A stretch of DNA of 32,000 nucleotides from Alphaproteobacteria bacterium (GCA_017475605.1 JAFVFD010000002.1:30001-62000); one strand, 5' to 3'. Numbered from the stretch's first letter, positions 5,049 through 32,000 are shown. The notes: a model not told the origin generated them from the letters alone. Numbers and translations: made by a program.

Positions 5049-5405
5049 ATGCCCGATAAAAAACCAGAAAACATTGATATGAATAAAATGCCCGCGTTGA
5101 CAATGAATATAAATGATAAACTGTTTTTCGCATTGGCGCGTCGTGATACCGACACTTTGTCGTATGTATATTCACTGGTAATAAATCGAGAACAAGGCAG
5201 TTATCCCGCCGAAATGAAAACAGAAATATCCGCGTTCAAGGATACAGCCAGCGCAAATTTATATTATGAAACCGCAACACTTGTTATGGAACAGCAACAA
5301 AGCGGTATATTAAATAAAATACATGAATTATTCCGCGGAATGTTTGAATCACAAATAACTGCATTTAACAAAAGTGCGTCAGGTTTTAAAACACGCACAA
5401 AGTAA
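5049..5405 (+). CDS. Hypothetical protein (orphan, AT-rich patch)
   Basis: 118-aa ORF that starts 1 nt after the tgt stop. No recognisable motif and no TM segment. The coding call rests only on ORF length and position. Confidence 0.45.
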   Translation: MPDKKPENIDMNKMPALTMNINDKLFFALARRDTDTLSYVYSLVINREQGSYPAEMKTEISAFKDTASANLYYETATLVMEQQQSGILNKIHELFRGMFESQITAFNKSASGFKTRTK

Positions 5406-5450
5406 TTATAAAAAACACATCATAAGAATTAAACATAAAAGAGAAGCAAA

Positions 5451-5804
5451 ATGACACAATATAAACAAGTAACCAAATACGTAATTGATCGTAAAATAAA
5501 TATCAATATAGACCCCAAATGGAAAGAAATATATCTTGGGGTTGCGGAACCGATACGGTATAAACAAGAATATCGTGTTTTGACATATTATATTCCGGTA
5601 ACGGATAAATCTGACGACTCGTTCTTTTATATCCCCAAGGTTTCTGGTGCCAGATTTTCAACCAAAAATGCTGCGATGAAATACTATAACGAAAAACAGT
5701 CATTAAAGGCAATGCAGTGGAAAATCAACACTGACGAGAAAAACAACACACCGTTTGATTTTATGGACAAACAAATAGCAAATTTTTATTCCTTTGCGCG
5801 GTGA
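5451..5804 (+). CDS. Hypothetical protein (orphan, AT-rich patch)
   Basis: 117-aa ORF preceded by aaagagaagcaaa (weak RBS). No recognisable motif. Confidence 0.45.
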   Translation: MTQYKQVTKYVIDRKININIDPKWKEIYLGVAEPIRYKQEYRVLTYYIPVTDKSDDSFFYIPKVSGARFSTKNAAMKYYNEKQSLKAMQWKINTDEKNNTPFDFMDKQIANFYSFAR

Positions 5805-5872
5805 TATGAATTATCGCTTGCATGAAAGCAATAAAATAATTATCTTTCATAAATATAAACAAGGGGGACCAG

Positions 5873-6847
5873 ATGGCCAAAAAGAAAGAAGTTGAAGTAA
5901 TTGATATGGGTGGCGCAAAAACCGTTGCTAAAAAGAAATCTTTTATTACACGTGTAAATGTTATATTTGCGATTTTTTCGGTCGTATGGTTGGCATTTGT
6001 TGTGTGGTATCCATTACACATTCGCGATAAATACGCATCTTCAATAAAGCAATCGACAGTAGTTGCGATTTTCTATGATTTACAACGTAATATTGCGGAT
6101 CAATATGAAAAAATGTTGTTGGGAATTAAAAAGTCTATCAATCTGGAAAAGCCAATAGCACAGGTTATAGACAAGGTTAAAATGGCCGAAGGTGCGATTA
6201 ACAAAGTAACCGATACAACTGCGCGCGCGACCGAGGCAACCAATAAAGCCAAGGACACAACGTCCGGGGTTCGTGCTTTAAGTGGTATCGCGGGCAAATT
6301 TGGTGTCAACACATCTGGGGTTGATAAAGCAGTTGGCAAGGTTGATAACACAATTAACAAGGCGGACAAGGCAATAGCAAAGGTTGACGATACCGCCGCA
6401 TTGGTAAACCAGAAATTAACAAGTGTTGAAAATGAATTGACCAAGGTTGCAAAAACCGAAGTGGACAAGGTTATTGATGATGCAATCAAAAATAACATAG
6501 ATCCTGCGGCTGCAATGTTATTAACACAATACGATATCAAACATGTATATCCATGGGACCCATCGTCGTGGCCGACCGCACGCAAGATTTATGCGGAATT
6601 GGTAAAATCTGACCTGGGGTTTGTACAAACTATTATCAAAACAGTGAACAAGTATTTCGGATATGTAATGTGGGGTTATTTGATTTTGATGTGGGGTGTT
6701 GGCCTTTATATCTGGTTGACCGTCCGCAAGTATGTCAAGGGATTGACCGCGCCATTCTTGGTCTGTCCACGATGCGGACACACATATGCCGACAAGCGTA
6801 CAGCGGTAAGTTTGCTGAAAGTTGTACAACCATGGAAATGGTTTTAA
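5873..6847 (+). CDS. Hypothetical bitopic membrane protein with a K/D/T-rich helical repeat domain and a C-terminal CPRCGH motif
   Basis: 324 aa with RBS aagggggac. TM1 is FAIFSVVWLAFVVWYPL and TM2 is YVMWGYLILMWGVGLYIWLTV. The central region has reiterated KV(D/T)xT.NKA(K/D)xxx units (VDKAVGKVDNTINKADKAIAKVDDTAALVNQKL). Confidence 0.6.
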   Translation: MAKKKEVEVIDMGGAKTVAKKKSFITRVNVIFAIFSVVWLAFVVWYPLHIRDKYASSIKQSTVVAIFYDLQRNIADQYEKMLLGIKKSINLEKPIAQVIDKVKMAEGAINKVTDTTARATEATNKAKDTTSGVRALSGIAGKFGVNTSGVDKAVGKVDNTINKADKAIAKVDDTAALVNQKLTSVENELTKVAKTEVDKVIDDAIKNNIDPAAAMLLTQYDIKHVYPWDPSSWPTARKIYAELVKSDLGFVQTIIKTVNKYFGYVMWGYLILMWGVGLYIWLTVRKYVKGLTAPFLVCPRCGHTYADKRTAVSLLKVVQPWKWF

Positions 6848-6999: not shown

Positions 7000-7051
7000 A
7001 ATCAAAAAACCACCCAAACAGGTGGTTTTTAAAATTTTGGTGCGAGCAAAG
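7000..7051. repeat. Master copy of the repeat: tRNA-Gly terminator hairpin (7004-7030) plus the tRNA 3' end
   Basis: See 6897-6948. The hairpin is ccacc-caaaca-ggtgg flanked by A and T runs. It overlaps the 3' 14 nt of the tRNA gene. Confidence 0.85.
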
Positions 7052-7114
7052 GGGCTCGAACCCTCGACCTCAACCTTGGCAAGGTTGCGCTCTAGCCAAC
7101 TGAGCTACGCTCGC
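7038..7114 (-). tRNA. tRNA-Gly (anticodon GCC), CCA encoded
   Basis: Folded by hand from the reverse complement: GCGAGCG-TA-GCTC-AGTTGGCTA-GAGC-G-CAACC-TTGCCAA-GGTTG-AGGTC-GAGGG-TTCGAGC-CCCTT-TGCTCGC-A-CCA. Length is 77 nt. Confidence 0.9.
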
Positions 7115-7254: not shown

Positions 7255-10113
7255 TTGAAACGCATGGTTTTAGGGCTTTTTGCGTGTTTGTTTGGTGTGT
7301 TCGTCGTGAACGTGGCGATGGCTGCGTGTACAGAAAATGAAATTGATGTAACCGGTACCGGCAGTCAATGTGAAACAGTAAAATTTACCCTGACAACAAC
7401 GGAATTGGCGGCAAACGGATCATTAAATATATGGATGTCTGCCAAGGGAACATTCTATATTGATTGTGGGAAAAATGGTACGTTGTCTGGTGCCGGAACA
7501 TCTGGTAAAACGCTTACAAAAACAACCAATTTGGTTTCAGAAGTGCAATGTAAATGGTCGTCCGCCGGTGTACACACGATTCGATTTGGTGGAACCGCGA
7601 CGGAATATGCCAGTGTTGGTCTTGATGCATCTTCAACCAATGCGGCGATACAATTTGGTACCAGCACAAATCAGTCAAAAATAGCATCTGTGTCAGGTTC
7701 GTTGGGCGCAATGTTCCCGCAATTGGGATCGGCATCGAACCAAGTTCCAAGTTTTGCATCATTATTTGATGGGGCCAGCAATTTAACATCTATACCATCG
7801 ACATTGTTCAGTGGTTTAACCGGCAGTGCCAACGCAAGGTATATGTTTCATGAAACTTTTTCTGGTTGTACCAGTTTAACATCAATACCGGCGGGATTGT
7901 TTGCGGATATTACCACACCTGCCGAGCATATGTTTAATAAAACGTTTAATGGGGATACTAATTTATCTGGCTTTATACCATGGACTACATTTTCTGGATT
8001 GGTTGCAAATAACAGTCCAACCGTTTCAAATATGTGGGTTAATACATTCCAGGGCACCAATTTGGCTACGGCTTGTCCAACGGGGTCAACCCAATATACA
8101 ACCCAATACGAATCCAGTTGGAACAGCAAAATTTCATGTATTTGTGCCGGCGCATACTTTTTTGATGATGCGCTGAACACATGCACCCCATGTCCAAATG
8201 GCTATGATTATGATACAACCAACGGCAAAACGGATGTAAGCCAGTGCCAAATACAGTGCGCAGCAGGAACATATGTCGAAACCCCTGGTGTATATGGTTT
8301 TACAGTTCTGGAATATTTGGAAAGCCCCGGTGATGCGTACATTGATACGGGGTTCGTGCACAATTCAGACAATATTCGGGGCGAAATTCGTGTTGGGGTA
8401 TCTGAAAATATCGCGTCAAGCAAGAATTTTAATATAATTGGAAACCAAACAGCCAATGAGGGATATTCTGTGGGGTGGGCAGACAATCAGTTTAAAGTAT
8501 GGGTTGTTACCACAGGTCAACGCTTAAGAGGTCCCGATCATCCATTGGTGGCAAATGGCGTGTATGATATTGCGTATGAATTTAAAAATGGTCGGCAATA
8601 CCTGACAGATGGCAGTGATACAAGAGACATGGCACACGATGGTGGAATTGTGACAGACAAGCCTATACACTTGTTCGATAACGGTGTCCAAGAAATGTCT
8701 TATAATTTCAAGGGGCGTGTGTATTGGATACGGTTATATGAAAACAATGTGTTGGTGCATAATTTCCTGCCGGTGCGTCAAGATGGTACAGATCTGATAG
8801 GTATATTTGATACAGTAACAGGAAGCTTCTTTACCAACAGTAATGCCAATAGTCAAAGTGGATTTACATATGGTGGCGATTTAAGCAACACATGTGTTGA
8901 TTCTGGGCGTGGGTATTATGTTGGGCAATCTATAACCAATTTTGGTGATGTCGGCGAACGGATCCCGTGTCCGATTGGTAAGTATTCCAATAGTCTGCGA
9001 GGCACCAGTATCGCATCGTGCCAGAACTGTCAGGGCGCAACATACAACGATGTTACGGGTGCCGCCGAATGTGCCGCATGTCCGGCCGGATATACCGATA
9101 ATATAGACCCAGGTAAAATATCAAAAACACAATGCGAAACCACATGTCCAGGCGGAACGTATATGAGGTCTGATATGATTAATGGACATACAAAGTTAGA
9201 ATATATTGTAGCGGAAGGCAAACAATGGATAAATACTAATATTAATGCATCATCATTGGTAAATCCAATTATGAAATTGACAACGCAATATACCGCTGTT
9301 GAAAAAGGAAAACAAACCGGTGCGAAGAAAAACAATCTTGATTTCAAGGTGGGTATTTCTAATGGCAATGTGTTCTTGTGCCAGGCCGGTGGGGCAAATA
9401 CAGAAACAAAATTTGGTGCCGCTGACACCGCAAAACATACGTTTATATTGGATGCGGGTGCGGGAAAATGTTCCCTGGACGACGAAATCAAAGACTTGGC
9501 TGTTGGCAATTTAACCGATGGACCCATTTCTATCGGGACGGTGAATAATCAATCTGGCAATGCTGGAAAACAAAAAATCTTTGCTTTTACTTTGATAAGC
9601 AACGGCGTAAAGTTACTGGACTTGATTCCAGTGCTTGATGCAAATGGCGTTGCAGGAATGTATGATGAGGCCCACGATCGATTTTACGCCAGTGCCGGAT
9701 CCCAGCCGTTTGTTCAAGGGCCGCGATCAAATTCTAGTGGTTGTATTGATGTTGAACCGGGATATTGGGCGCCAGAAACTGTGTTAGGATATGGGGAAAC
9801 AAGCGATCGTAATGAATGTCCGCTGGGAACAACAACGGTTGGATATGGCCATGGCGCAGACGAGGCATCTGACTGTGGGCGTGTGTTATATATTGCCAAT
9901 GGAAAGTTTTATGCGAAAACAATAAAGCCAACAACACCGGCACTAAACCTTATGACCAATGGGGGCGGTATATTTTACATCTGGGCCAGCCCAACAGACC
10001 ATACATTATCCAACTTGCACCTGGGATCAATGGAAAATCAATATACGGTATATGATGACAGTTTGTTCTATGGTGAACGCGATTTTACGACGGACAATCG
10101 TATAAACAATTAA
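7255..10113 (+). CDS. Large secreted or surface mosaic protein: signal peptide, DUF285-like ~26-residue repeats, ephrin-receptor-like Cys-rich modules, and two copies of a ~180-190-aa LEY...IPV module
   Basis: 952-aa ORF with a TTG start at 7255, about 11 nt after the RBS aaaggggg. Signal peptide is MKRMVLGLFACLFGVFVVNVAMA/AC. Other motifs include YMFHETFSGCTSLTSIPAGLF, HMFNKTFNGDTNL, CTPCPNGYDY, CQNCQGATYNDVTGAAECAACPAGYT and CETTCPGGTY. Confidence 0.8.
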   Translation: MKRMVLGLFACLFGVFVVNVAMAACTENEIDVTGTGSQCETVKFTLTTTELAANGSLNIWMSAKGTFYIDCGKNGTLSGAGTSGKTLTKTTNLVSEVQCKWSSAGVHTIRFGGTATEYASVGLDASSTNAAIQFGTSTNQSKIASVSGSLGAMFPQLGSASNQVPSFASLFDGASNLTSIPSTLFSGLTGSANARYMFHETFSGCTSLTSIPAGLFADITTPAEHMFNKTFNGDTNLSGFIPWTTFSGLVANNSPTVSNMWVNTFQGTNLATACPTGSTQYTTQYESSWNSKISCICAGAYFFDDALNTCTPCPNGYDYDTTNGKTDVSQCQIQCAAGTYVETPGVYGFTVLEYLESPGDAYIDTGFVHNSDNIRGEIRVGVSENIASSKNFNIIGNQTANEGYSVGWADNQFKVWVVTTGQRLRGPDHPLVANGVYDIAYEFKNGRQYLTDGSDTRDMAHDGGIVTDKPIHLFDNGVQEMSYNFKGRVYWIRLYENNVLVHNFLPVRQDGTDLIGIFDTVTGSFFTNSNANSQSGFTYGGDLSNTCVDSGRGYYVGQSITNFGDVGERIPCPIGKYSNSLRGTSIASCQNCQGATYNDVTGAAECAACPAGYTDNIDPGKISKTQCETTCPGGTYMRSDMINGHTKLEYIVAEGKQWINTNINASSLVNPIMKLTTQYTAVEKGKQTGAKKNNLDFKVGISNGNVFLCQAGGANTETKFGAADTAKHTFILDAGAGKCSLDDEIKDLAVGNLTDGPISIGTVNNQSGNAGKQKIFAFTLISNGVKLLDLIPVLDANGVAGMYDEAHDRFYASAGSQPFVQGPRSNSSGCIDVEPGYWAPETVLGYGETSDRNECPLGTTTVGYGHGADEASDCGRVLYIANGKFYAKTIKPTTPALNLMTNGGGIFYIWASPTDHTLSNLHLGSMENQYTVYDDSLFYGERDFTTDNRINN

Positions 10114-11792: not shown

Positions 11793-13190
11793 ATGATTTC
11801 TAAATCTGATACTTTTGCGGTTGATTTAACCGCAGATCACGACAGGAAAAACCTGGCCGATATTGAACACGCACTGGCCGAACACCGTATTAACGAAGAA
11901 GCGGCCGAATACCTGCGGTCCCTGTATTCCGACGGGATGGATTGGTTCCGTGAAGTGTTTCATGTCCTGGGTAAATGCCTTGGCGCGCCCAAGGCACCCG
12001 TTGTGCGTTATGATTATGAAAACGATTGTGGTGTTGATGAACAGATTAAAATATCTGATATTAACCCATTGTCGCCATATCTTGTCCAGCATCGTTTGGA
12101 CATGGACCCAATGCGTAATCAGTTCTTTACGGTTACCGCCGGACACCAGGTTGATTTGTCGGTGTCGTCTATTGTTACGGTTATTGTTGCTGCACAAAAA
12201 CGCACAGAACGCGCACTGGAAAAAATTACGGGAAAATATTATCGGGACTATGTTAACGATGTTGCAACAACCGCTGAACGCGTTATAACTGCGCACGAAC
12301 GCGCGGCATCTGGGCGCGCAATCGCCGAAAAAATACGTGAAGAGTTTTCTGATAAGTTTATAACATCTGCACCAGAAACTGTATTAAAGATTATCGGTCG
12401 CGGCCACGAACAAATTGCCGTAGATTTAGTGCGCGAATTGGATAAAATTGAAAAGCCGCATTTAAGATTGCAAGATGTTTGGCGCGTGAAGTGTTTGTTT
12501 GATTTGGTGCCCCAGGCGCGTACATTCATAGAACGCATCCGCGAAGCGATGCCGGAACGCATTATTTCCATGCGGGACAAGTTTTATGATATGGACAACC
12601 CACGTAATTATCGTGATGCCAAAATTATTTTGAATATTGGGCATGACGGCGGGCCGGTTATACCAATGGAAATTATATGCCAGGTGCGTACGTTCTTTGA
12701 ATTTGAACGCATGACGCACATTCAATATGAACGCGCGCGCAAACGCAAAAACGCGGCCAGTGATAACATAGAACGCAAATTGGCAGATTATATGGAAGAT
12801 GGCATCAAAGAATACAACCTTATGATTTGTCGCTGTGTCGAGGCTTTGTTTGACCGCGTTGGGTGGAATATTTTGTATGAACGCGGAATCGGCATGTCGC
12901 TTTTCGAAGGGTTCCCAAAGAATTGCACCTTGTATTATCCGCAAAAGATGTTGGATATCATTACCGATAAATTGGATAACGCGATTGAAAACGAAGTGTT
13001 TCGCCTTACCACTTCGCCCGCGAAATTAACCCAGGCCCAAACAAGCGAAATCTTTCACTTTATGGCGCGGTTTATTTTGGTTGCGGCGATGCCATATCGT
13101 AAATCGGCATGGTCTGCGCCGACGAATACACCGGCGGGCAAATTATTTAATTTCGTTATGAAGGAAGTTCAACGTTATTACAAACAATAA
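11793..13190 (+). CDS. Hypothetical protein with a possible divergent RelA/SpoT-like (RSH) nucleotidyltransferase core
   Basis: 465-aa ORF. Residues 228-318 (nt 12474-12746) read DVWRVKCLFDLV ... NPRNYRDAKIILNI ... PMEIICQVRTFFEFERMTHIQYE. This parallels the RSH synthetase motifs DxxGxR(I/V), GYRSxH and EIQIRT...H..YK. The match was made by eye only. Confidence 0.35.
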   Translation: MISKSDTFAVDLTADHDRKNLADIEHALAEHRINEEAAEYLRSLYSDGMDWFREVFHVLGKCLGAPKAPVVRYDYENDCGVDEQIKISDINPLSPYLVQHRLDMDPMRNQFFTVTAGHQVDLSVSSIVTVIVAAQKRTERALEKITGKYYRDYVNDVATTAERVITAHERAASGRAIAEKIREEFSDKFITSAPETVLKIIGRGHEQIAVDLVRELDKIEKPHLRLQDVWRVKCLFDLVPQARTFIERIREAMPERIISMRDKFYDMDNPRNYRDAKIILNIGHDGGPVIPMEIICQVRTFFEFERMTHIQYERARKRKNAASDNIERKLADYMEDGIKEYNLMICRCVEALFDRVGWNILYERGIGMSLFEGFPKNCTLYYPQKMLDIITDKLDNAIENEVFRLTTSPAKLTQAQTSEIFHFMARFILVAAMPYRKSAWSAPTNTPAGKLFNFVMKEVQRYYKQ

Positions 13191-17930: not shown

Positions 17931-19127
17931 TTATTTGCCCTTTATCATTACGGAAATATTGCGCATTATGCGGCCCAGGAAGCGCACCTTTTTAACATTG
18001 TCGGCGGCAACCAGTGGTGCACGCGCAATTATACGACCGTCCAATTCCGCAATAATTTCGCCCAGTGTGTCGCCCGCCGCAATTGGTGCCGGCGCGGGAT
18101 CATTAAATCGTGCCAACACGCGCACAGAAGATACGGGTGTCGGTTTTGTCAACGTGATTGCGAACGGTTGCGCGACCGTTGCGTTGACCTTATCGGCGCG
18201 ACCGTACCATACCGGTATTTCAACGACTGTATCACCAGGCTGATAATAAACCTTGTGTGTGGTGGTGGTAAAACCATAGTTTAATAATTTCTTCATTTCC
18301 GCCGCCAACGCATCGTGTCCACGACCGTTGAATCCGTTTATAATGCCAATTAAACGACGGCCCCCCACGCGCGCAGATGCGACCATTCCATAACCACCGC
18401 TGTCGGTGTGGCCGGTTTTAAGACCATCCGCCCCCGGCATAGTGAACAATAATTTGTTGTAATTTACGGTATGTGTACGCCCCCAGTCGCGACACCAATC
18501 TGACTTATAATCATTAAATTCAAAACGTTTTGTCGCGAACAACGGGTAAATATCCGGATAATCACGAATAATGTGTGTCGCCAATATTGCTAATTCGCGA
18601 CTTGTCATCAAATTATTCGGATCCGGCAGGCCACTTGCGTTGCCAAACGTTGATTGTTCCATGCCGATTGCACGCGCCTTGGCGGTCATTTGTGCGGTAA
18701 ATGCGTTTTCAGACCCAGCCAGTTTTTCCGCCACAACAACCGATGCATCACCGCCCGACAGGACAATAAGTCCCAAAATCGCATCACGAACGGTTATTTC
18801 CTGGCCGGAAACAAGGCAAATCTTACTTGCCGGGTACCACAGTGGGTTTTTGTAATCTGCGTTGTCTGATACGGGCAGTTTGCTGTCCATGTTAAGACGG
18901 CCGGCCTTGATTTCATCAAAAAGTACCGCCAGGGTCATCAATTTAATCATTGATGATGGCGGCATTAAAACATCCGCGTTTTTGGCATATATTTCAGTAC
19001 CTGAATCGTAGTCTAATAAAAATGCGGAACGTGCCTTGGTCGTAAAATCTGTTTCCGCCTGTTTTGCGGCATTTGCGGTTACGGAAATCAATAACAATAA
19101 AGTGGTAATAAATATCTTTGTCTTCAT
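17931..19127 (-). CDS. dacC: Serine-type D-alanyl-D-alanine carboxypeptidase (PBP5/6 class)
   Basis: Signal peptide MKTKIFITTLLLLISVTANA. Motifs SxxK (SMIK), SGGD and KTG (LKTGHT). I moved the start from 19163 to the ATG at 19127. Confidence 0.85.
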   Translation of the reverse strand: MKTKIFITTLLLLISVTANAAKQAETDFTTKARSAFLLDYDSGTEIYAKNADVLMPPSSMIKLMTLAVLFDEIKAGRLNMDSKLPVSDNADYKNPLWYPASKICLVSGQEITVRDAILGLIVLSGGDASVVVAEKLAGSENAFTAQMTAKARAIGMEQSTFGNASGLPDPNNLMTSRELAILATHIIRDYPDIYPLFATKRFEFNDYKSDWCRDWGRTHTVNYNKLLFTMPGADGLKTGHTDSGGYGMVASARVGGRRLIGIINGFNGRGHDALAAEMKKLLNYGFTTTTHKVYYQPGDTVVEIPVWYGRADKVNATVAQPFAITLTKPTPVSSVRVLARFNDPAPAPIAAGDTLGEIIAELDGRIIARAPLVAADNVKKVRFLGRIMRNISVMIKGK

Positions 19128-19180
19128 GCCCAAATCATAGCAATATTGATGGCAAAATGGCAACGATTTTTTACAATTTT

Positions 19181-20883: not shown

Positions 20884-20974
20884 GGAGACGTCGCATAGTT
20901 GGTCTAGTGCGCCACATTGGAAATGTGGTATACTCGCAAGGGTATCAAGGGTTCGAATCCCTTCGTCTCCGCCA
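20884..20974 (+). tRNA. tRNA-Ser (anticodon GGA), long variable arm, CCA encoded
   Basis: Folded by hand: GGAGACG-TC-GCAT-AGTTGGTCTA-GTGC-G-CCACA-TTGGAAA-TGTGG-TATACTCGCAAGGGTATC-AAGGG-TTCGAAT-CCCTT-CGTCTCC-G-CCA. Length is 91 nt. Confidence 0.9.
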
Positions 20975-20982
20975 GAAAATTA

Positions 20983-21007
20983 CCCCGCATTTGCGGGGTT
21001 AATTTTT
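20983..21007 (+). terminator. Terminator immediately after tRNA-Ser
   Basis: Hairpin ccccgc-attt-gcgggg at 20983-20998, followed by ttaattttt. Confidence 0.7.
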
Positions 21008-21132
21008 GGCGGATATGTGAGGCAGATTTGAACCATTAGCAACGAATGTTGCTGGGTTCGAAAACAAGTAGATTTTGCAAGCGCAGCGTGGCGAAATCGT
21101 TACGGTTTGCCCGCAGGCACATTGTGCCGAGG

Positions 21133-21192
21133 GAATCCCTTCGTCTCCGCCAGAAAATTAAAATCTTAAAACGCCCCGTTCGGGGTGTTTTT
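21133..21192 (+). repeat. tRNA-Ser 3'-end fragment copy 2 plus its own terminator
   Basis: gaatcccttcgtctccgccagaaaatta (21133-21160) is identical to 20955-20982. It is followed by aaatcttaaaacgccccgttcggggtgttttt (hairpin plus T-run). Confidence 0.85.
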
Positions 21193-21321
21193 GATTTTAA
21201 CTGGCGTGGACGAAGGGATGGGTCAGAGCGAAGCGCATGACCAATACGCAGATGAACAATTACAAAACCTGCAAAAACGGATATTTTTAATAGAGTTTTT
21301 GCGTTTAGGTTTTGTTTTTGT

Positions 21322-21390
21322 TTATCAAGGGGGGGGTATCGTCTCCGCCAGAAAATTAAAATCTTAAAACACCCGTTCGGGGTGTTTTTT
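21322..21390 (+). repeat. tRNA-Ser 3'-end fragment copy 3 (degenerate T-arm replaced by a G8 run) plus terminator
   Basis: ttatcaagg-gggggg-tatcgtctccgccagaaaattaaaatcttaaaacacccgttcggggtgtttttt. Positions 21339-21370 are identical to 21141-21172. The G8 tract is at 21329-21336. Confidence 0.8.
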
Positions 21391-21412
21391 ATTTAGGAGG
21401 GGGAGGAATTGA

Positions 21413-21441
21413 TTGATTTTTTTATGGTTTTGTGATATAAT
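21413..21441 (+). promoter_or_regulatory. Near-consensus sigma70 promoter with extended -10, upstream of the toxin gene
   Basis: TTGATT (21413-21418), a 17-nt spacer, TG at 21433-21434, and TATAAT (21436-21441). Confidence 0.5.
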
Positions 21442-21456
21442 ATGTGCAACTAAACG

Positions 21457-21479
21457 GACGGCATTTGCCGTCTTTTTTT
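21457..21479 (+). terminator. Terminator-like hairpin inside the toxin-gene leader
   Basis: gacggc-attt-gccgtc (21457-21472) followed by 7 T. A second, weaker hairpin ccgc-tacgt-gcgg (21487-21499) is followed by 6 T. Confidence 0.5.
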
Positions 21480-21526
21480 ATTTCCACCGCTACGTGCGGG
21501 TTTTTTATTTAACAAAAGGAGTTATA

Positions 21527-22678
21527 ATGCAAACACCAAAATTTTTACGCAATTTATTACAATCTAATAACTATTGGAATAAAAATAGTACTGAATTCGC
21601 AAAAGCAAATGAATATCTGGAAAAGTTATATCCAGTGCAACTGTCCGCTGATTTATCAGGAAGATTTGTTGAACCGCCATACGATATGACCCTGGAACAA
21701 TTTGAAAGCGCACAACGGCAATTCGACAAAGATTTGGAAGATGCGATTCATGAAGCAGAAGATTCAGTAGATGATGCAAATGGAACAGCAGAGCCAATTG
21801 ACTATGACCAATATGTAGATATTGAAGAAACGATAGATGTTCGTGTTTTGATGCCAGGTGGAAATATAGAATATATGCAACTTGTCGTATATATGTTGAA
21901 TTTGCCTGATGATGACACTGATGTGGAACTGGAACCAGATAAAACACAAAGGATTTGGATATGGCACAGCGAAGAAGACGAAAATGTTTGCGATGATTGT
22001 GTATCACACGATGACGAAGTATTCGAAGACAAAGACGATATTCCAGAAATTCCCGTGCATCCTAACTGTCGTTGTTGGGTTGAAGAAGTAAAGTTAGATG
22101 ACAACGGTAAACCTATTTCAAGTAAAGCATACAAAGGGCAAAAGCCAGAAATACCGAAAAATGACAAAGAACCTCAGTCAGAAAAAACGCCAACTTTTGA
22201 TAAACCTGTTGATATAAAAGAAGGTCAATATGCCACATTTGACGGGAAAAATCTGACTATATTTCAAGACGGCAAAGTTGTTGCTTCGTGGAATGCGGTA
22301 TCAGGTCGTCCAGAGTATCAAAGTCCAGAATATCAAAATCTAAAATCCACAGGTCCAATTCCAGAAGGTGCATATGTAGCAAGACAAGAAAAATTACAAC
22401 ATATGTCACCAGCAGATTGGGCAATTGGATGGTCCAGAGTTCTGGGAAATAAATTTGGTGGGAAATGGCCGGGTTCATCTGTTTCTTGGGGAAATTCTCG
22501 CGTATGGCTGGAACCTTCAAAAGAAACAAACACTTTTGGACGTGACAAATTCAGTATTCACGGAGGCTTGTTTCCTGGTTCTGCAGGTTGTATAGATTTG
22601 ACGGACCAAATAAACTCTTTTACATCTTGGTTGGAAAGTACTGGAAAAGATTTACTGATATATGTAAAATATAAATAA
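21527..22678 (+). CDS. Polymorphic-toxin-like protein: MuF/SPP1-gp7 C-terminal signature fused to a Tlde1/DUF2778-like L,D-transpeptidase-fold peptidoglycan toxin domain
   Basis: Start set at ATG 21527 (RBS aaaggag), not 21413. The MuF motif is IWIWHSEEDENVCDDCVSHDDEVF...PVHPNCRCW (nt 21953-22078). The C-terminal domain (nt 22223-22675) reads WNAVSGRPEYQSPEYQNLKSTGPIPEGAY ... LEPSKETNTFGRDKFSIHGGLFPGSAGCIDL. Confidence 0.7.
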   Translation: MQTPKFLRNLLQSNNYWNKNSTEFAKANEYLEKLYPVQLSADLSGRFVEPPYDMTLEQFESAQRQFDKDLEDAIHEAEDSVDDANGTAEPIDYDQYVDIEETIDVRVLMPGGNIEYMQLVVYMLNLPDDDTDVELEPDKTQRIWIWHSEEDENVCDDCVSHDDEVFEDKDDIPEIPVHPNCRCWVEEVKLDDNGKPISSKAYKGQKPEIPKNDKEPQSEKTPTFDKPVDIKEGQYATFDGKNLTIFQDGKVVASWNAVSGRPEYQSPEYQNLKSTGPIPEGAYVARQEKLQHMSPADWAIGWSRVLGNKFGGKWPGSSVSWGNSRVWLEPSKETNTFGRDKFSIHGGLFPGSAGCIDLTDQINSFTSWLESTGKDLLIYVKYK

Positions 22679-22693
22679 GTCAAAGGACATTTT

Positions 22694-23041
22694 ATGAAAT
22701 ATTGGAAACGCGCAGCAATAATTTTTGTTGGAATTGATTTTTTTCTACTTTTTGCGTTGATTGATGAATATTATGAATTTTTTATCAAGGATTGTCGTGA
22801 TGCGTTTCCATTCCATTATTGTCCATGGGGTGGCGAAAGTATGGGTTGGGGATGGAGAAATGCCGATGTATATTTGAATGGCATAGCATCATCTGGTGCT
22901 GTTTTATTATTGTTTATTCCATTGGCAATATATCATTTGTACAATCAAAATTATAAATATGCATTTTGGACTGCTTTAGCCCCAATCATAATATCTTGGA
23001 GTAGTGAATTTTTAGAACGTATTTTATATTATTGTGCTTAA
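22694..23041 (+). CDS. Small 3-TM membrane protein, candidate cognate immunity protein
   Basis: 115 aa. Starts 15 nt after the toxin stop, with RBS aaagga. TM segments are AAIIFVGIDFFLLFALI, SGAVLLLFIPLAIYHL and FWTALAPIIISW. Confidence 0.6.
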   Translation: MKYWKRAAIIFVGIDFFLLFALIDEYYEFFIKDCRDAFPFHYCPWGGESMGWGWRNADVYLNGIASSGAVLLLFIPLAIYHLYNQNYKYAFWTALAPIIISWSSEFLERILYYCA

Positions 23042-23050
23042 CTTGTTGAC

Positions 23051-23093
23051 ATTTGAAAATAATGGACATGATTTAATTGTTAATGTAAAATAC
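23051..23093 (+). repeat. Cassette-flanking repeat, copy A
   Basis: atttgaaaataatggacatgatttaattgttaatgtaaa matches 23398-23436 at 33 of 39 positions. All 6 differences are transitions. Confidence 0.75.
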
Positions 23094-23095
23094 AA

Positions 23096-23398
23096 ATGAT
23101 GAGTTTTATAGGCAGTTTTTTATCTATGACCCTTGCATTATTCTTTCTGAATGATTTGTCGGGGCTTTTAAGTAACGGTAAATGGGACGGCTTACTGCAT
23201 TTTATATGCGAACATGATTGCCTTATGCTTGTTGATAAAATAGCCCTAGTATTATTTAGTACGATGTTTGTATTTTTTTCTATACAGGCAATAAAACTAT
23301 ACAAATGGAAATTTTTATTTGTCCCTTTATTATCTTGCCTTGCATGGTTATTGTTGATGATGTTACATTTATTGACAGTATATTTGTTTTTTGTATGA
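23096..23398 (+). CDS. Small multi-TM membrane protein (holin-like or orphan immunity candidate)
   Basis: 100 aa and very hydrophobic (FIGSFLSMTLALFFL, IALVLFSTMFVFFSI, FLFVPLLSCLAWLLLMMLHLLTVYLFFV). There is no clear RBS. Confidence 0.45.
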   Translation: MMSFIGSFLSMTLALFFLNDLSGLLSNGKWDGLLHFICEHDCLMLVDKIALVLFSTMFVFFSIQAIKLYKWKFLFVPLLSCLAWLLLMMLHLLTVYLFFV

Positions 23399-23443
23399 TT
23401 TGAAAACAATGAACATGATCTAATTATCAATATAAAGAAATAC
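23398..23443 (+). repeat. Cassette-flanking repeat, copy B
   Basis: atttgaaaacaatgaacatgatctaattatcaatataaagaaatac. See copy A. Confidence 0.75.
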
Positions 23444-23448
23444 TTTGT

Positions 23449-23475
23449 CCTGCATCATTTGGTGCAGGTTTTTTT
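23449..23475 (+). terminator. Rho-independent terminator between the membrane-protein cassettes and the lysozyme gene
   Basis: cctgca-tcatttgg-tgcagg (23449-23468) followed by 7 T (23469-23475). Confidence 0.7.
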
Positions 23476-23487
23476 ATAAAAAAAGAG

Positions 23488-24006
23488 ATGAAAGATATGA
23501 AAATGAGTGACAATGGCATAAATATGTTAAAAAAATTTGAAGGTTCTGTAACAAAAGGCGATAAACACATTATATATGATGATAAAACCGGGAAACCCGT
23601 GGATGTGAACAAACCTTTACCAAGTGGTGCAACTATCGGTTATGGTCATTTAATCAAACCGAACGAAGATTTTAGAAACGGAATTTCAGAATCTAAAGCC
23701 ACCGAATTATTACGCGCCGACATTGCAACTGCAGAACGTGCCGTACGAGATAACATAACTGTACCATTATCACAGAATCAATTTGATGCTCTGACTTCTT
23801 TGGCTTATAATATCGGCTCAAAAAATTTCGCAAATTCAACCGTTGTTAAATATGTAAACAATCCGAATTTTCATAGTTCTGTGTATCCAAATCTGGAATC
23901 TGCATGGAAGACATGGAATCGTTCCCAGGGCAACGTATTAAAGGGTCTTGTAAACCGCAGACAAAACGAATGGGTTATGTATAATCGTGGTATATATTTA
24001 ATTTAG
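23488..24006 (+). CDS. GH24 (phage T4/lambda-type) lysozyme/muramidase, no signal peptide
   Basis: 172 aa. Motifs LKKFEG ... YDD ... TIGYGHLI ... LSQNQFDALTSLAYNIG. Alternative ATG starts exist at 23497 and 23503. Confidence 0.85.
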   Translation: MKDMKMSDNGINMLKKFEGSVTKGDKHIIYDDKTGKPVDVNKPLPSGATIGYGHLIKPNEDFRNGISESKATELLRADIATAERAVRDNITVPLSQNQFDALTSLAYNIGSKNFANSTVVKYVNNPNFHSSVYPNLESAWKTWNRSQGNVLKGLVNRRQNEWVMYNRGIYLI

Positions 24007-28199: not shown

Positions 28200-31100
28200 C
28201 TACCACGATATATATCCTGGATTACACGTCCGTTCGCACTTTTTGGTGGCATTGTTCCACCGCAGCGAACCTGTTTCGTCTGAATATGGGCGATCACAAA
28301 TTGGGACACATTCGTTGTTGTCCAAATTGTACTTTTCGCCTTGATACAGACATGATGCTATTTCGCAACCGGTGCTGTAACTGGCCGCGGCAACTTCGCC
28401 CAGAACACTGAACTTGTTGCGACATGCGCTGCACTGTTCGGATGCGTTATTCTTTTCGTATGGGTCGTTCGTATAGCCCGGTACGCACGATGTCGCAATA
28501 CATTCGTTCCATGAACCCGTTGCGGTGTTCCATGTCTTTGTACCAACACCGTTCGGGACGTTACACACCTGTTCATTTTCAACACACGCGTTTGATGCCA
28601 GGTGGAACCCATCTTCACACGATTTTATCGTACAGATGCCGAATGCGCCATGTGCTGCATCCCACTTCTGTGTGGCAACTGTTGCGTTTGGTGCCACGTC
28701 TGTACAATCTTTGACATCTTCCTCACAAACACTGTTGTATGGATGGTAACCAATCACGCAGCTTTCAATTATACAGTTTCCATCAGGTTTATAGGACAAT
28801 GCGTTTTCACGATTGCATGGCTTACATGACCCATTGACCATTTCGTAGTTACTGATACACGCTGTTTCTATACAATGCCCGTCAACAACTTCTGCCGGGT
28901 TACCAGTCGCAGATGTACCAGTGTACTGACAATTGTTTGGCCAATAGGCGGTGGTTTCAACTGGGCTAAGGGTACAATTATCCTCAACATATCCAGTACA
29001 CTTGCGGTAACAATCGCTTGCCTTGGTGGCCCCAGGGGCTGAATACATCCAACTGCCATCACCCAGGTCCGCGCAAGATTTCGCGCCGTTGCCACCTTCG
29101 CCGCCCGGTGTTCCATCACAGAAACTGCCCGCTGGACAAGTTACACATTGGCCATTGGACAGTGTATAACCTGATGCACAAGATGTAATCGCACATGTGT
29201 CTGTGGCAGTATAATAATCATGGCCCGACATCGCATTTGCGTTTTCGCCCATTGTACAGTCGCGATAGCAATATGCCTTATCTATTGTTCCTGCTTCTGA
29301 CTTTGGATACAACCCACCAGTCAGATATTCGCAGGTTTCTACTTCCTGTCCAGGTTCACATACACTGTTTTCTGGACATACGAAGCAGGCACGTTCGCTT
29401 TCGCTGGTTGCTGTACGTGTTGTTGTCCCCGCCGGACACGCATACCGCGCCAAATCGCGATCTGGGCTGTAATACGCATAGTCCGCCACAGAACATTCTA
29501 TATCGGTCGCATTTGCCAACCAATAACCCGCATCGCAGTACAGCATAGTTGGGGTTCCGCAACCGGCCAGGTACGCATCATCCGCAACACTCCATTTACA
29601 TGTGCGTTCGCCACCACCATGTTCCGCAACATACGGTTGTCCATTCTTCCAGCATTCAGATATCGTACTGGTGTTGTTGTATGATGTCTTACCTTCGTTC
29701 GGACACGCATGACGTTCCAGTTCGTCTTCAATGCTGTAATAGTTGAAGTCTACGACAGTACATGCGATATCTGTTTGTGCCGCCAAATAATACCCACCAC
29801 GACACTTTGTAATAACCTTGTCAAAGCAATCGCGTCCATAAACCGCACTATTTCCTGTGCCATTTGAATACCAGCAACTTTGTGTCCCAGTACCCGACCC
29901 ATCGGTCGCCGCATAGGCCAAATTCGCCTTGAAGCATTCCTGGACCGTTTCCGCGGTTGTGTTATCAGACTTCGTTGTACCGCCATTCGGGCACGCATCA
30001 CGTGTTAATATATTGTTCGCACTGTAATACCCGACACCGGCCGCTGAACAATCGGTGCCTGTTGTGGTTGCCAACCAATGACCCGCATCACAGGATGTTA
30101 TTACAAAGTCTTTACATCTGTCGGAATAGGCCAGGGCTGTTTCGTTGTAATAACATGTTTGTGTACCGCGTCCATGTGTTGCAACATATGTTGGCAACAA
30201 TTCTTTATAACATGCCGCACTGCTTTCCGAATTGGCAGGCGATTTACCATCGTCCGGACAGGGTTCAATACCTGCCTGGCCAGAATTTGTAACGACGGTT
30301 ACACCAGGGCAATAGTTGTTTGCCGTACATGGTAAACAGTCTGTTGTCGGATTTTCGCCGGCACCGCGATAATATTTACCCACTGGACATGTAATAGGTG
30401 CATCGGTCCATTGTGCAGAAACCGTAGCATTGGATGTTGTAAATGTCAGTGCGGCCGTTGTTGTTACAAATTTGCCGTCCGCATCAACAACAGATACATT
30501 ATTCCCTGTGTATCCAGCGAATGTCAACACACCCTTGACCGGTTTTGTGGTCAGTGTGGTAATTGCCGTTGTGGCGGCTGCATTTGAATACCAGCCGGTC
30601 GCATACTTCAAATACACCTTGGCCGGTGAACCAGCGGTTGTCGCACCATTGTGATTCAATGTGATTTCATACACATTCGGTGTCCACTGGGCAAACAATT
30701 CAATATCAGATGCATCAGACGATATATTTGTCGTAACCGTAGTACCCGCGTTATAGCATGTGCCACCACCATTCGCCGCGGTGCACCATTTGTTCGCGGT
30801 GCTGTACCCGGTGCGTGTATCCACAATCGCCGGTAATGCGCATGCGCCACTGTCGAATGTGCACTTTACACTTGGTGCGGTTGAACCCGTACCACCATTT
30901 TTGTTAAGGGTAATGGTGTATTCGTGTGCATCGCATGTTGGTGCGGCGGTGTTGTTGTTTTTGACATCATAACCGGTCTTGCACACTACATTGTATGAAC
31001 AAGCATTATATGTTGTCGCGCTGTTACCATACACGATATTTTCCGCGGCGGATACAGTCTTGGAATTTGCGAAATCCGCAGGTGTTTTATCGCATTCGGT

Positions 31101-32000
31101 ATAGCATGCGGTGTAACTTGCCGCGAATTCTGTTGAACCCGCCCAGCCCGCCGGACATTCCGTTTGGGTTGTTGCACCATCACCACTGTAATAACCGCTT
31201 GTTGTGCCGGAACACGCGAACGAACCGGCGACCCTGTAAAAGTATCCCGCGTTACAGGTCAAAGCATCGGCATCCATACAGTTATTATAATCACCACTAA
31301 CTTCTGTGCCGTTGTAATAGCATGTGGCGAAACCTGTACCATTTGCCCAATTGTGATTTGGATAGCCGGTTGTTGCGGTATATGGATTATATGTTACATA
31401 ACAAGTCTCAATACCACGATATTTTTGACCTTCAACCAGGGCGGCCTTGCCCGGGGTGCCATCTTTGTCGGTCGGACAGTCGTGGAATCCATCTGTATCG
31501 CACCACATATCTTCTGGGCAAACATTGGAACTATAGATACATTTGTTATAAGCATTTGTCGTTGTGTTATAGGAAACATGTTGGCTTACCACATTAACGG
31601 TAGTTCCGTTCAGATTCTTGGTTGCTTTACATGTCAAATAACAATCTGTAATCGCTTTACCATTTGTCGCACTGCCAGTATTTGGTGTGTTGCTGACCAC
31701 ATCGCCAGATGTATCTGTACCCGCGGGGCACACATTTAATTTAGTAGATGTGGTATCTGTTATATTTGTTTCGTTCCAATTAGTCGGGGCAGGACTCCAA
31801 TTGCCATCGCCAACCGCAACACAGTCCAGATTTTCATTTGTACTTGTTGCGCCGTCTAATTCATCATAGTATCCAGCATCACACTTGCGCATTGTATAAC
31901 TGTTGCCGCAATTGATTGAATAGGTGTTGTTAACAGTGCTCCAATGGCAACGTTTTGTGCGACCACCATGAGTTGTCTTTTCCCAAATGCCTTCGCGGAC
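28200..32000 (-). CDS. Giant cysteine-rich repeat protein, 5'-truncated by the window edge; contains Listeria-Bacteroides (Flg_new-like) repeats and tandem six-Cys units
   Basis: I checked codon by codon that the frame stays open from 31892 to 32000 (...VREGIWEKTTHGGRTKRCHWSTVNNTYSINCGNSYT-MRKC...), so the ATG at 31892 is probably internal. By hand count there are about 85 Cys in the 1230 aa listed. Confidence 0.8.
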   Translation of the reverse strand, partial: VREGIWEKTTHGGRTKRCHWSTVNNTYSINCGNSYTMRKCDAGYYDELDGATSTNENLDCVAVGDGNWSPAPTNWNETNITDTTSTKLNVCPAGTDTSGDVVSNTPNTGSATNGKAITDCYLTCKATKNLNGTTVNVVSQHVSYNTTTNAYNKCIYSSNVCPEDMWCDTDGFHDCPTDKDGTPGKAALVEGQKYRGIETCYVTYNPYTATTGYPNHNWANGTGFATCYYNGTEVSGDYNNCMDADALTCNAGYFYRVAGSFACSGTTSGYYSGDGATTQTECPAGWAGSTEFAASYTACYTECDKTPADFANSKTVSAAENIVYGNSATTYNACSYNVVCKTGYDVKNNNTAAPTCDAHEYTITLNKNGGTGSTAPSVKCTFDSGACALPAIVDTRTGYSTANKWCTAANGGGTCYNAGTTVTTNISSDASDIELFAQWTPNVYEITLNHNGATTAGSPAKVYLKYATGWYSNAAATTAITTLTTKPVKGVLTFAGYTGNNVSVVDADGKFVTTTAALTFTTSNATVSAQWTDAPITCPVGKYYRGAGENPTTDCLPCTANNYCPGVTVVTNSGQAGIEPCPDDGKSPANSESSAACYKELLPTYVATHGRGTQTCYYNETALAYSDRCKDFVITSCDAGHWLATTTGTDCSAAGVGYYSANNILTRDACPNGGTTKSDNTTAETVQECFKANLAYAATDGSGTGTQSCWYSNGTGNSAVYGRDCFDKVITKCRGGYYLAAQTDIACTVVDFNYYSIEDELERHACPNEGKTSYNNTSTISECWKNGQPYVAEHGGGERTCKWSVADDAYLAGCGTPTMLYCDAGYWLANATDIECSVADYAYYSPDRDLARYACPAGTTTRTATSESERACFVCPENSVCEPGQEVETCEYLTGGLYPKSEAGTIDKAYCYRDCTMGENANAMSGHDYYTATDTCAITSCASGYTLSNGQCVTCPAGSFCDGTPGGEGGNGAKSCADLGDGSWMYSAPGATKASDCYRKCTGYVEDNCTLSPVETTAYWPNNCQYTGTSATGNPAEVVDGHCIETACISNYEMVNGSCKPCNRENALSYKPDGNCIIESCVIGYHPYNSVCEEDVKDCTDVAPNATVATQKWDAAHGAFGICTIKSCEDGFHLASNACVENEQVCNVPNGVGTKTWNTATGSWNECIATSCVPGYTNDPYEKNNASEQCSACRNKFSVLGEVAAASYSTGCEIASCLYQGEKYNLDNNECVPICDRPYSDETGSLRWNNATKKCERTCNPGYISW
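29373..30209 (-). repeat. Three tandem ~92-aa six-cysteine repeat units within the giant protein (aa 562-840 of the listed ORF)
   Basis: The units begin TYVATHGRGTQTCYYNE, AYAATDGSGTGTQSCWYSN and PYVAEHGGGERTCKWSV. Each continues C..(7-8)..C.AG(H/Y)W/Y ... C ... YYS ... ACP.G ... EC(F/W)K. A fourth, separated unit is at aa 184-267. Confidence 0.75.
30405..30920 (-). other. Two Listeria-Bacteroides repeat (InlB B-repeat / Flg_new-like) domains, Cys-free core
   Basis: YTITLNKNGGTGS ... TGYSTANKW ... DIELFAQWT and YEITLNHNGATTAG ... LTFAGYTG ... ATVSAQWT fit the pattern Y.v.f..nGG ... GY.F.GW ... l.A.W. Confidence 0.6.

Follow-up and report, generated by a model that had tools for sequence, protein, structure and literature searches.

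How does a toxin built round the core of a phage head protein come to stand in a bacterial chromosome with no phage around it, and what could it be for? The question is raised by a locus at positions 21413-24006 of a 32,000-nucleotide stretch of DNA (the window) from an Alphaproteobacteria bacterium (GCA_017475605.1, JAFVFD010000002.1:30001-62000), in which the largest gene joins a MuF-type zinc core to a Tlde1-type peptidoglycan enzyme. To our knowledge, the route by which MuF-type toxins reach their targets is not yet established for any of them, and those described so far all lie within prophages and all carry warheads that act in the cytoplasm. We suggest that the present locus is probably a chromosomal polymorphic effector-immunity locus, made up of a MuF-core N-terminal module (N-module), a linker, an exchangeable peptidoglycan-directed warhead, cognate and orphan immunity genes, and a spare lysozyme of family GH24. 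It belongs with the MuF-type polymorphic toxins, as a variant. Its four open reading frames (ORFs; 21527-22678, encoding 383 amino acids (aa), 22694-23041, 23096-23398 and 23488-24006) were each found as a preliminary description of the window had given them, and in order the locus reads as a toxin, the cognate imm1, a relic with the orphan imm2, the relic of a lost third cassette, a terminator and the spare GH24 warhead:

21527-22141, + strand: N-module of the effector, residues 1-205, conserved throughout the family whatever the warhead
22136-22222, + strand: disordered linker rich in Lys, Pro and Glu, residues 204-232 (predicted local distance difference test score, pLDDT, below 50; junction comparison with effector P0110 and other fusions)
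22223-22678, + strand: Tlde1-type warhead of L,D-transpeptidase fold, residues 233-383 (Pfam, PDB profile search, Foldseek)
22694-23041, + strand: imm1, candidate cognate immunity gene, 115 aa, membrane protein with a Cys-pair loop (tail-allele pairing)
23052-23099, + strand: relic 2, the last 15 codons and stop of a displaced toxin allele (FENNGHDLIVNVKYK, then stop; tail identity)
23096-23398, + strand: imm2, putative orphan immunity gene, 100 aa, about three transmembrane segments (matches the partner of the P0015/P0019-type allele)
23399-23444, + strand: relic 3, a degenerate toxin tail (FENNEHDLIINIKKY; repeat, colinear with locus L022)
23449-23476, + strand: intrinsic terminator, 8-bp stem and T7, closing the toxin/immunity array
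23488-24006, + strand: stand-alone GH24 lysozyme, 172 aa, without a signal peptide (Pfam, PHROG)

The ATG at 21527, assumed earlier to be the true start of the effector, is upheld; position 21413, given as the start of the whole feature, is merely an upstream TTG of the longest ORF and coincides with the -35 box of the promoter. The AT-rich patch noticed before is real, with a G+C content of 0.31-0.39 over 21000-24000 against 0.43-0.49 in the flanks, and all four genes are under purifying selection (ratio of nonsynonymous to synonymous substitution rates, ω or dN/dS, of 0.10-0.22).

The Tlde1/L,D-transpeptidase identity proposed for the C-terminal domain was borne out by profile and structure searches alike, with Tlde1a as the best match in both. 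Pfam Tlde1_dom matches residues 257-366 with 31.6 bits (cut-off 30.1), and YkuD matches residues 242-370 with 21.8 bits, below its cut-off of 23.4. A profile built from 115 full-length homologs, run against 177,635 PDB sequences, returned Salmonella Tlde1a (7UMA, 7UO3, 7UO8) as its sole match (E = 4e-5), with the H...GC motif aligned. The AlphaFold (AF2) model of the effector has a mean pLDDT of 75.7, with 85-95 in the C-terminal domain, and a Foldseek search among 350,542 chains placed the same three Tlde1a structures on top (7UO8, 7UMA, 7UO3; E 3e-7 to 6e-7, target-normalised template-modelling scores 0.56-0.62), followed by YkuD and the mycobacterial L,D-transpeptidases (LdtMt). Residues H345, G346, G347, G354, C355, I356 and D357 are invariant in the 115 homologs, and the His/Cys residues match the motif His...(S/T)xGC defined for Tlde1a (PMC9638812). 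The codon of Cys355 (tgt) lies at 22589-22591, where the catalytic Cys had been placed, and that of His345 (cac) at 22559-22561. The motifs quoted from the effector earlier, namely the linker KGQKPEIPKNDKEPQSEKTPTFDKP, WHSEEDENVCDDC...PVHPNCRCW, TGPIPEGAY and FGRDKFSIHGGLFPGSAGCIDL, are all present in the translation; only the spacing given as HGG-x5 has to be corrected to HGG-x4-SAGC. The warhead is a Tlde1-like enzyme, with predicted L,D-carboxypeptidase/transpeptidase activity.

Its likeness to the Tlde1/Tldi1 pair of the Salmonella type VI secretion system (T6SS) extends from the fold, for which Tlde1a is the best structural as well as the best sequence match, to the catalytic H...(S/T)xGC motif and to the activity that would be expected of both, L,D-carboxypeptidase and exchange reactions on peptidoglycan stems. 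In contrast to Tlde1a, the domain in the window is only 22-24% identical, is fused to a 230-aa N-terminal extension and has no T6SS genes near it; and whereas Tldi1 is a soluble periplasmic protein, the immunity candidates of the present family fall into at least five unrelated groups of small, polytopic membrane proteins. A different Tlde1 protein of ~330 aa, with a PG_binding_1 domain and an unrelated N-terminus, was seen in two loci of the family (L033, 15794-16792, - strand; L076, 8716-9705, - strand), followed by an imm1-like gene of 111 aa; it represents the same type of warhead and immunity gene on another delivery module.

The first part of the effector had been described as carrying the signature of phage MuF head-morphogenesis proteins. 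This identification holds, and the similarity is real and confined to about 50 residues. Pfam Phage_Mu_F (PF04233) scores 24.1 bits, below its cut-off of 29.6, over residues 139-185 and only positions 61-111 of the 112 in the profile; some relatives pass the cut-off narrowly (P0121, 30.6 bits; P0125, 30.1 bits). PHROG head and 'minor head protein' families match residues 142-197 only, with 23-32 bits. In Foldseek comparisons with viral models, run on the full model and on a separate model of residues 1-215 with the same outcome, 50-63 residues aligned to phage head-morphogenesis proteins (probability 0.97-0.99, E at least 0.05), and residues 1-140 had no viral counterpart. Five residues of the MuF-type zinc motif (residues 139-190, 21941-22096) never vary, namely W146, C155, C158, C181 and C183, and a sixth, H178, hardly does. 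The N-module is a lineage-specific unit built round the MuF zinc core. A reversed layout was observed in five loci: in a 201-aa protein (L036, 9161-9766), an 'RNNNPGN' region stands at the N-terminus and the MuF core, which here exceeds the Pfam cut-off with 36 bits, at the C-terminus.

The effector is not the orphan that it was first taken for. It belongs to a conserved family, for which 437 homologs were found (among the best 120, nearly all are full-length), and a scan of one genome per species gave 72 loci, all in metagenome-assembled genomes (MAGs) of gut or rumen Alphaproteobacteria, many of them Candidatus Enterousia and some with two loci. The exact protein is deposited at NCBI as "DUF2778 domain-containing protein" of an alphaproteobacterial MAG. 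The host of the locus is a gut alphaproteobacterium with a reduced genome, of the type of Candidatus Enterousia / Rs-D84, a lineage (order Rs-D84) with genomes below ~1 Mb and a predicted dependence on other cells (PMC12306168). The window locus is syntenic (smpB-tatD-holB-dacA-miaB-rpoZ-tRNA-Ser) in species whose effector is only 61% identical; 17 other loci follow frr-uppS-cdsA-rseP-bamA. Not one full-module member was found among the 2.9 million contigs of IMG/VR, 50,697 phage genomes and 72,556 plasmids. Residence on a phage or a plasmid was considered and rejected, the matches in phage genomes and plasmids being to the Tlde1 domain alone. A faecal contig labelled 'Bacteriophage sp.' (L106, MT836786.1, unverified) carries housekeeping-type genes and a 244-aa Tlde1 protein (domain 40% identical) followed by two multi-transmembrane ORFs; here again Tlde1 is paired with membrane proteins, and the contig is probably bacterial rather than phage. 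The fusion had been called undescribed, and we likewise found no description of it, 'Tlde1' and 'MuF' being named together in none of about 8 million papers; fusion and family are apparently new.

What varies in this family is the warhead. Fusion partners were collected by an exhaustive search with residues 1-210, then by Pfam, and then by a census of the 72 loci:

N-module with Tlde1: about 23 loci
N-module with GH24: about 17 loci
N-module with GH108 (and PG_binding_3): about 15 loci
N-module with a divergent or pesticin-like lysozyme: about 8 loci
N-module with Peptidase M23: seen among cluster representatives

Every identifiable warhead on the N-module is a peptidoglycan-attacking one, some of them matching the Pesticin family of Pfam, and comparison with P0110 and other fusions puts the junction at which they are swapped in the linker (residues 204-232). 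The exchange has left traces. In L089 and L090 the zinc motif and linker continue in frame into a glycosidase, the GH108 ORF of L018 starts with a relic of the end of the N-module, and relics of N-module or linker stand ahead of stand-alone glycosidases in L018 and L089-L091. Degenerate 3' fragments of Tlde1 precede the glycosidase in L015, L018 and L034, and in L062, L076 and L054 such fragments lie, together with immunity genes, downstream of GH108 or GH24 fusions. The fused warheads of P0110, P0124, P0125, P0127, L053, L063 and L066 each begin with a Met just after the linker (..KNMKMSD.., ..SDMKFEQAY.., ..SDMKNILT..), which suggests an origin as stand-alone genes, or separate translation from an internal start.

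The GH24 gene of the window is seen differently in the light of these fusions. That it encodes a muramidase without signal peptide, as claimed, is clear from Pfam (Phage_lysozyme, E = 1e-31) and PHROG (phrog_7 endolysin, E = 3e-36), and a catalytic Glu can be read by eye in 'KKFEG'. The effector P0110, encoded in a related genome at the syntenic position (rpoZ/tRNA-Ser to ybaK), has an N-module with identical runs over residues 1-210 fused in frame to a GH24 domain, and the GH24 of the window is 78% identical to that domain, the alignment starting at residue 2; the P0110 locus has neither a Tlde1 domain nor membrane-protein genes. A stand-alone GH24 or GH108 gene follows only about half of the Tlde1 loci, and GH24 is absent from L019/L020, L022-24 and many others. 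The GH24 of the window is best read as a putative alternative warhead of the same family in unfused form, because relatives have it joined to this very N-module, about half of the Tlde1 loci lack it, and it is insulated by the terminator, which was called at 23449-23468, ahead of the lysozyme, as described. The same three observations speak against the release enzyme of a type-10-secretion-like system that the preliminary description had seen in it. It may nonetheless have an auxiliary or independent role, because the gene is under purifying selection.

The two membrane-protein genes between toxin and terminator carry the record of earlier exchanges. The last 46 nt of the toxin gene (22631-22676) recur as relics after each of the two. 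The stop of relic 2 overlaps the ATG of imm2 (ATGA), and in a search of all toxin tails its 15 residues were found to be identical (15/15) to the tails of the full-length toxins P0012, P0015 and P0019. In L019 and L022, the ORFs that come directly after the toxins, again with the start/stop overlap, share 78% and 87% identity with imm2; the loci of this type then have a further tail relic and a different membrane-protein gene, in one case 49% identical to imm1. Relic 3 is colinear with the relic and 113-aa gene that follow the imm2 homologs in L022, and marks a third cassette of which the immunity gene is gone. A resemblance between tails had at one point led to the prediction that imm2 would be related to the gene (L015_117) following P0088/P0107; the two proved unrelated, and the exact allele was then found by the search of all tails.

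Across the census, the family of the gene at the +1 position tracks the type of warhead. Tlde1 loci have same-strand genes for multi-transmembrane proteins of 99-128 aa in five families; GH24/GH108 loci have small lipoproteins or signal-peptide proteins; and divergent-lysozyme loci have a lipoprotein of ~330 aa in 8/8 cases. Within the Tlde1 loci, the tail allele in turn predicts the immunity family: imm1 stands at +1 after toxins with a LESTGKDLL tail in 4/4 loci, and the tail FENNGHDLI(I/V)N(V/I)KY(K/Q) pairs with the imm2 type in L029, L032, L019 and L022. The imm1 protein is 89% identical in L005/L025, and dN/dS is 0.13-0.15 for imm1 and 0.12-0.21 for imm2. Neither protein matches a Pfam, PHROG or PADLOC entry, holin families included, and neither sequence has a charged C-terminus. 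The pairing of alleles argues, at the level of genomes, for the immunity function proposed for ORF 22694-23041. ORF 23096-23398 had been regarded as holin-sized and a candidate for release; this view has to be given up, as it resembles no holin family, matches the partner of another toxin allele and is preceded by a relic of that allele. By these comparisons, both membrane proteins are putative immunity proteins and not holins, and imm2 would be an orphan immunity gene cognate to the P0015/P0019-type allele. The imm1 family is tiny and confined to the host lineage, none having been found in other taxa, as would be expected for a conflict among kin.

Upstream of the effector, the locus is laid out as follows:

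20884-20974, + strand: tRNA-Ser(GGA), with the locus directly downstream of its 3' end (ARAGORN, Rfam)
20955-21358, + strand: stacked copies of the tRNA-Ser 3' end, scars of attachment-site (att) type (repeat search)
21413-21441, + strand: promoter TTGATT-17 nt-TATAAT with TG extension (10/12 matches; conserved in the family and aligned across tRNA classes)
21456-21506, + strand: leader with two tandem terminator-like hairpins, a T-run after each (interval between promoter and ribosome-binding site)

Direct copies of the tRNA-Ser 3' end lie at 20955-20982, 21133-21160 and 21331-21358, with the core TCGTCTCCGCCAGAAAATTA exact in all three, and an inverted copy lies at 21201-21219; a hairpin terminator comes after each of the direct copies (20982-20999, 21168-21191, 21366-21388). 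Such matches occurred 0 times in 100 shuffles, and similar stacks are present in at least 10 other loci. The intergenic stretch 20955-21388 looks like a stack of integration scars. No right-hand att copy was found in the window, even with an 11-nt core and one mismatch allowed; in L082 and L038 a further copy of the tRNA end closes the module downstream. In ~43 of the 54 loci examined, the gene starts 115-600 nt past a tRNA gene on the same strand, with at least seven different tRNAs used (Ser-GGA, Ser-TGA, Ser-CGA, His, Glu, Lys, Pro), and there is no integrase inside the modules. All tRNA classes have the same leader, with a near-consensus promoter, two tandem hairpins with T-runs (here 21456-21473 and ~21487-21499) and a ribosome-binding site (~21516-21521); in loci L015-L094 it lies at about 9850-10000. 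Hairpin 1 is retained by 36/38 loci and shows compensatory changes (AU:25/GC:8; AU:22/GC:9). By analogy, this leader resembles the control of phage late operons, where transcripts from a promoter get past the terminators only if an antiterminator is present. A different promoter match scores highest in the region, TTGACA-16 nt-TATGAT (11/12) at 23372-23399, inside the 3' end of imm2 and directed into relic 3 and the terminator.

The ties of the locus to phages are weak. The claim that no portal, capsid or T6SS genes are present in the 32 kb was confirmed with Pfam and PHROGs, which gave no portal, capsid, terminase or T6SS family among the sizeable ORFs of the window; no portal, capsid or T6SS neighbours recur within ±10 kb of the 72 homologous loci, and comparison of these neighbourhoods shows that the homologs do not lie inside complete prophages. 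An anti-phage defence system was considered and, outside the capsid-hitchhiking scheme given below, rejected, PADLOC giving no match. About 10% of the loci lie near a trio of ParB-methyltransferase, TerS-like and TerL genes. The element to which the trio belongs consists of a large serine recombinase, DUF2924, the ParB-methyltransferase, DUF5681 (TerS-like), TerL and three small genes, and occurs on near-complete small genomes (L103, 5921-12862; L105, 5271-12926; L022, 6038-9105). It has no portal or capsid gene and could be a satellite-like packaging element. In L103 the element and a Hachiman defence system are flanked by the tRNA on one side and, on the other, by a degenerate att relic that immediately precedes the effector leader, a layout that probably reflects a later insertion at the same hotspot; we treat the association of terminase and effector as positional, and not as a functional partnership.

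How might such a locus work? In the mechanism that we propose, the N-module (~205 aa, with the MuF zinc motif) would be the delivery or adaptor part, and the Tlde1 warhead would trim or exchange peptidoglycan stem peptides in the periplasm of the target cell, where imm1, a predicted small inner-membrane protein with a periplasm-facing Cys loop, would neutralise it. An older toxin allele would have been displaced by recombination, leaving its 46-nt tail with imm2 and then a further tail relic; imm2, now an orphan, may protect against the displaced allele when this is made by neighbours. The GH24 would be another warhead of the family that is kept unfused here and joined in frame to the N-module in relatives. 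For export we can propose, with low confidence, that the effector is loaded into a particle of phage type, which would be encoded elsewhere or come from an infecting phage. Among the conceivable modes of delivery we tentatively rank such a particle first, a pesticin-like uptake of released protein second and some other exporter third.

Several points weigh against this proposal. Export is an essential step of it, and the machinery is found neither in the window nor within ±10 kb of the 72 loci: the effector lacks a signal peptide, and secretion or particle genes are absent from both. The similarity to MuF covers only the core of ~50 aa and stays under the Pfam cut-off, and the N-module may be unconnected with capsids. 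The immunity candidates are unlike the known, periplasmic Tldi1. The GH24 gene has a dN/dS of 0.10-0.22, including stand-alone pairs at a synonymous divergence (dS) of ~0.43, and its position is kept in about half of the Tlde1 loci; judged from sequence comparison, such selection would fit the role of an active partner as well as that of a reserve warhead. Finally, toxicity and immunity are predictions for organisms that are uncultured.

Other explanations of the locus must be weighed against the same observations. The effector could be a soluble bacteriocin in the style of colicin M or pesticin, its N-module binding a receptor and translocating the warhead, with release by leakage or lysis and no dedicated apparatus. 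The architecture fits: a delivery part at the N-terminus, then a linker and a C-terminal domain active on peptidoglycan, and an immunity gene downstream, with no signal peptide and no secretion genes nearby; some warheads of the family match Pesticin, and the immunity proteins are membrane-bound or periplasmic as well. However, simple inspection of the conserved N-terminus revealed no TonB or Tol box, the invariant zinc motif ties the N-module to phage head proteins and not to bacteriocin translocation domains, and no lysis gene is present; we consider such a bacteriocin unlikely. It is quite unlikely that the protein is instead a wall-breaching accessory of a phage-derived particle encoded elsewhere, a virion or one resembling a gene transfer agent, in which the MuF core would anchor the enzyme in the head until it is ejected to open the peptidoglycan of the recipient for DNA entry. 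An all-peptidoglycan set of warheads, which sets the family apart from known MuF toxins with their nucleases, ADP-ribosyltransferases and RelA domains, would suit this function; lysozyme domains carried by virions are a familiar theme (PMC5512222), phages are among the sources of stand-alone proteins with a Tlde1 domain, and a promoter and terminators arranged like a late-operon leader point in the same direction. But a penetration enzyme needs no allele-specific immunity genes, orphan arrays or rapid turnover of warheads, no particle genes lie near any of the 72 loci, and neither IMG/VR nor the 50,697 phage genomes contain a member of the family; a search for literature linking MuF with gene transfer agents found none. 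We regard as very unlikely a more elaborate scheme, in which the locus is an integrase-less module parked at tRNA genes that hitchhikes in capsids: its strong promoter, blocked by two terminators, would be freed only by a phage-type antiterminator; once a phage, or a particle encoded elsewhere, had reached its late phase, the MuF core would load peptidoglycan-degrading warheads into these foreign heads, and a symbiont of less than 1 Mb that lacks a delivery machine would thereby attack its neighbours while membrane immunity shields its kin.

The remaining explanations had both been offered in the preliminary description. One is release dependent on holin and muramidase (type-10-secretion-like) or on lysis, with the membrane proteins as holins and the GH24 opening the wall for the Tlde1 toxin. 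The GH24 does resemble a phage endolysin and lacks a signal peptide, it is under purifying selection, and stand-alone GH24/GH108 genes follow about half of the Tlde1 loci. Against this, the membrane proteins change together with the toxin allele and do not occur at loci with GH24/GH108 fusions, imm2 comes after a toxin-tail relic and matches the partner of another allele, and neither protein has the holin-family match (Pfam, PHROGs) or the charged C-terminus that could mark it as a holin. The muramidase is moreover not an obligatory partner, as seen from the loci that lack it (L019/L020, L022-24 and many more), a terminator separates it from the array, and in relatives it is fused to the N-module itself. 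Of all the models, this is the least consistent with the comparative data, and we hold it to be highly improbable. The other explanation is a prophage remnant. In its strict form, a functionless MuF toxin decaying at a tRNA attachment site after deletion of the prophage, it would account for the tRNA adjacency and att-type repeats, the AT-rich composition and the terminase-only element near ~10% of the loci. It is scarcely credible given four genes all under purifying selection, a locus that is syntenic between species with effectors only 61% identical, and a family retained, often in two copies, by genomes of less than 1 Mb that shed most non-essential DNA; and the terminase element, in L103, seems to have inserted later at the same hotspot. 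The domesticated prophage remnant of the preliminary description is only loosely right: no phage genes remain, and the module is a small unit found beside many different tRNA genes. We thus return to the polymorphic effector-immunity locus as the explanation that we prefer.

As such, the locus can be set beside three known kinds of system. Polymorphic MuF toxins have been described from temperate phages (Zhang et al. 2012, PMC3482391; Jamet et al. 2017, PMC5576092; Bxa and Apk2, PMC11699363). The present family shares with them a conserved N-terminal part with the MuF motif and an exchangeable C-terminal toxin domain, one or more small candidate immunity genes directly downstream, to which extra ones can be added, and, in a minority of loci, a position beside large and small terminase subunits that recalls the published 'MuF + TerL + TerS' class (PMC3482391). 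It differs in that only the ~50-aa zinc core of MuF is present, and in that its warheads are all peptidoglycan enzymes, which would act outside the cytoplasm, where MuF toxins have nucleases, ADP-ribosyltransferases, (p)ppApp synthetases, deaminases and peptidases; none of the family's peptidoglycan domains is listed in the supplements of the MuF-toxin survey. Its loci are chromosomal, beside tRNA genes in genomes of less than 1 Mb, and not in temperate phages or prophages, and the host is an alphaproteobacterium, whereas MuF toxins come mostly from Firmicutes. The orphan immunity arrays of contact-dependent inhibition (CDI; cdiA-CT/cdiI), Rhs and T6SS systems provide the second comparison. 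There, too, a new C-terminal domain with its immunity gene displaces the old pair downstream, truncated 3' relics of toxin genes stand ahead of orphan immunity genes, and orphans match the cognate pairs of other strains. The relics of our locus are very short by comparison (46 nt), its delivery module is MuF-like, and displaced GH24/GH108 warheads carry their own start codon and stay under purifying selection. Pesticin and colicin M, finally, also combine an N-terminal delivery part with a lysozyme-like or cell-wall-active C-terminal domain, lack a signal peptide and are countered by an immunity protein in the periplasm or inner membrane, and the Pesticin family of Pfam itself recurs among the warheads. 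In contrast to these plasmid-borne bacteriocins, the locus is chromosomal and tRNA-linked, its effector has no recognisable TonB box or receptor-binding domain, and its N-module carries a phage-type zinc motif.

The rest of the window is occupied by housekeeping genes (bamD, era, queA, tgt, lysS, rpsD, smpB, tatD, holB, dacA, miaB-like, rpoZ, dinB, ybaK). The dacA gene (17931-19163, - strand), for a PBP5-type D,D-carboxypeptidase, lies 2.4 kb upstream of the locus and is syntenic with it in several species; its products are the tetrapeptide stems that a Tlde1-type enzyme would cut, and the adjacency is probably a coincidence. A second AT-rich patch (5049-6847, G+C 0.34) near a tRNA-Gly gene (7038-7114, - strand) has ORFs of 118, 117 and 324 aa, none with a match in Pfam or PHROG; the 324-aa protein has a coiled-coil-like middle, C-terminal transmembrane segments and a CPRCGH motif, and the patch may be another tRNA-linked islet. 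Large ORFs without a Pfam match are those at 7255-10113 (952 aa), 11793-13190 (465 aa) and 28200-31892 (1230 aa), the first two also without a PHROG match; in the source contig, the gene call that spans the third gives a protein of 2851 aa with a Flg_new repeat, of a giant surface type.

The interest of the locus rests on its phage-less context, its all-cell-wall set of warheads, the tiny genome of its host and the question of delivery. The family keeps the MuF core without the phage, directs all its warheads at the cell wall, and persists, often in two copies, among the smallest free-standing gut genomes. It thereby separates the question of how MuF-type toxins are delivered from the prophage context, and leads to distinct predictions for particle loading, bacteriocin-like uptake or another exporter. 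It also adds at least five new families of candidate membrane-embedded immunity proteins against Tlde1-type enzymes, together with candidate inhibitors of GH24 and GH108 lysozymes, and offers a clear case of the turnover of warheads and their immunity genes. For the biology of the hosts, we take it as a hint that bacteria predicted to depend on partner cells invest in weapons that target peptidoglycan.

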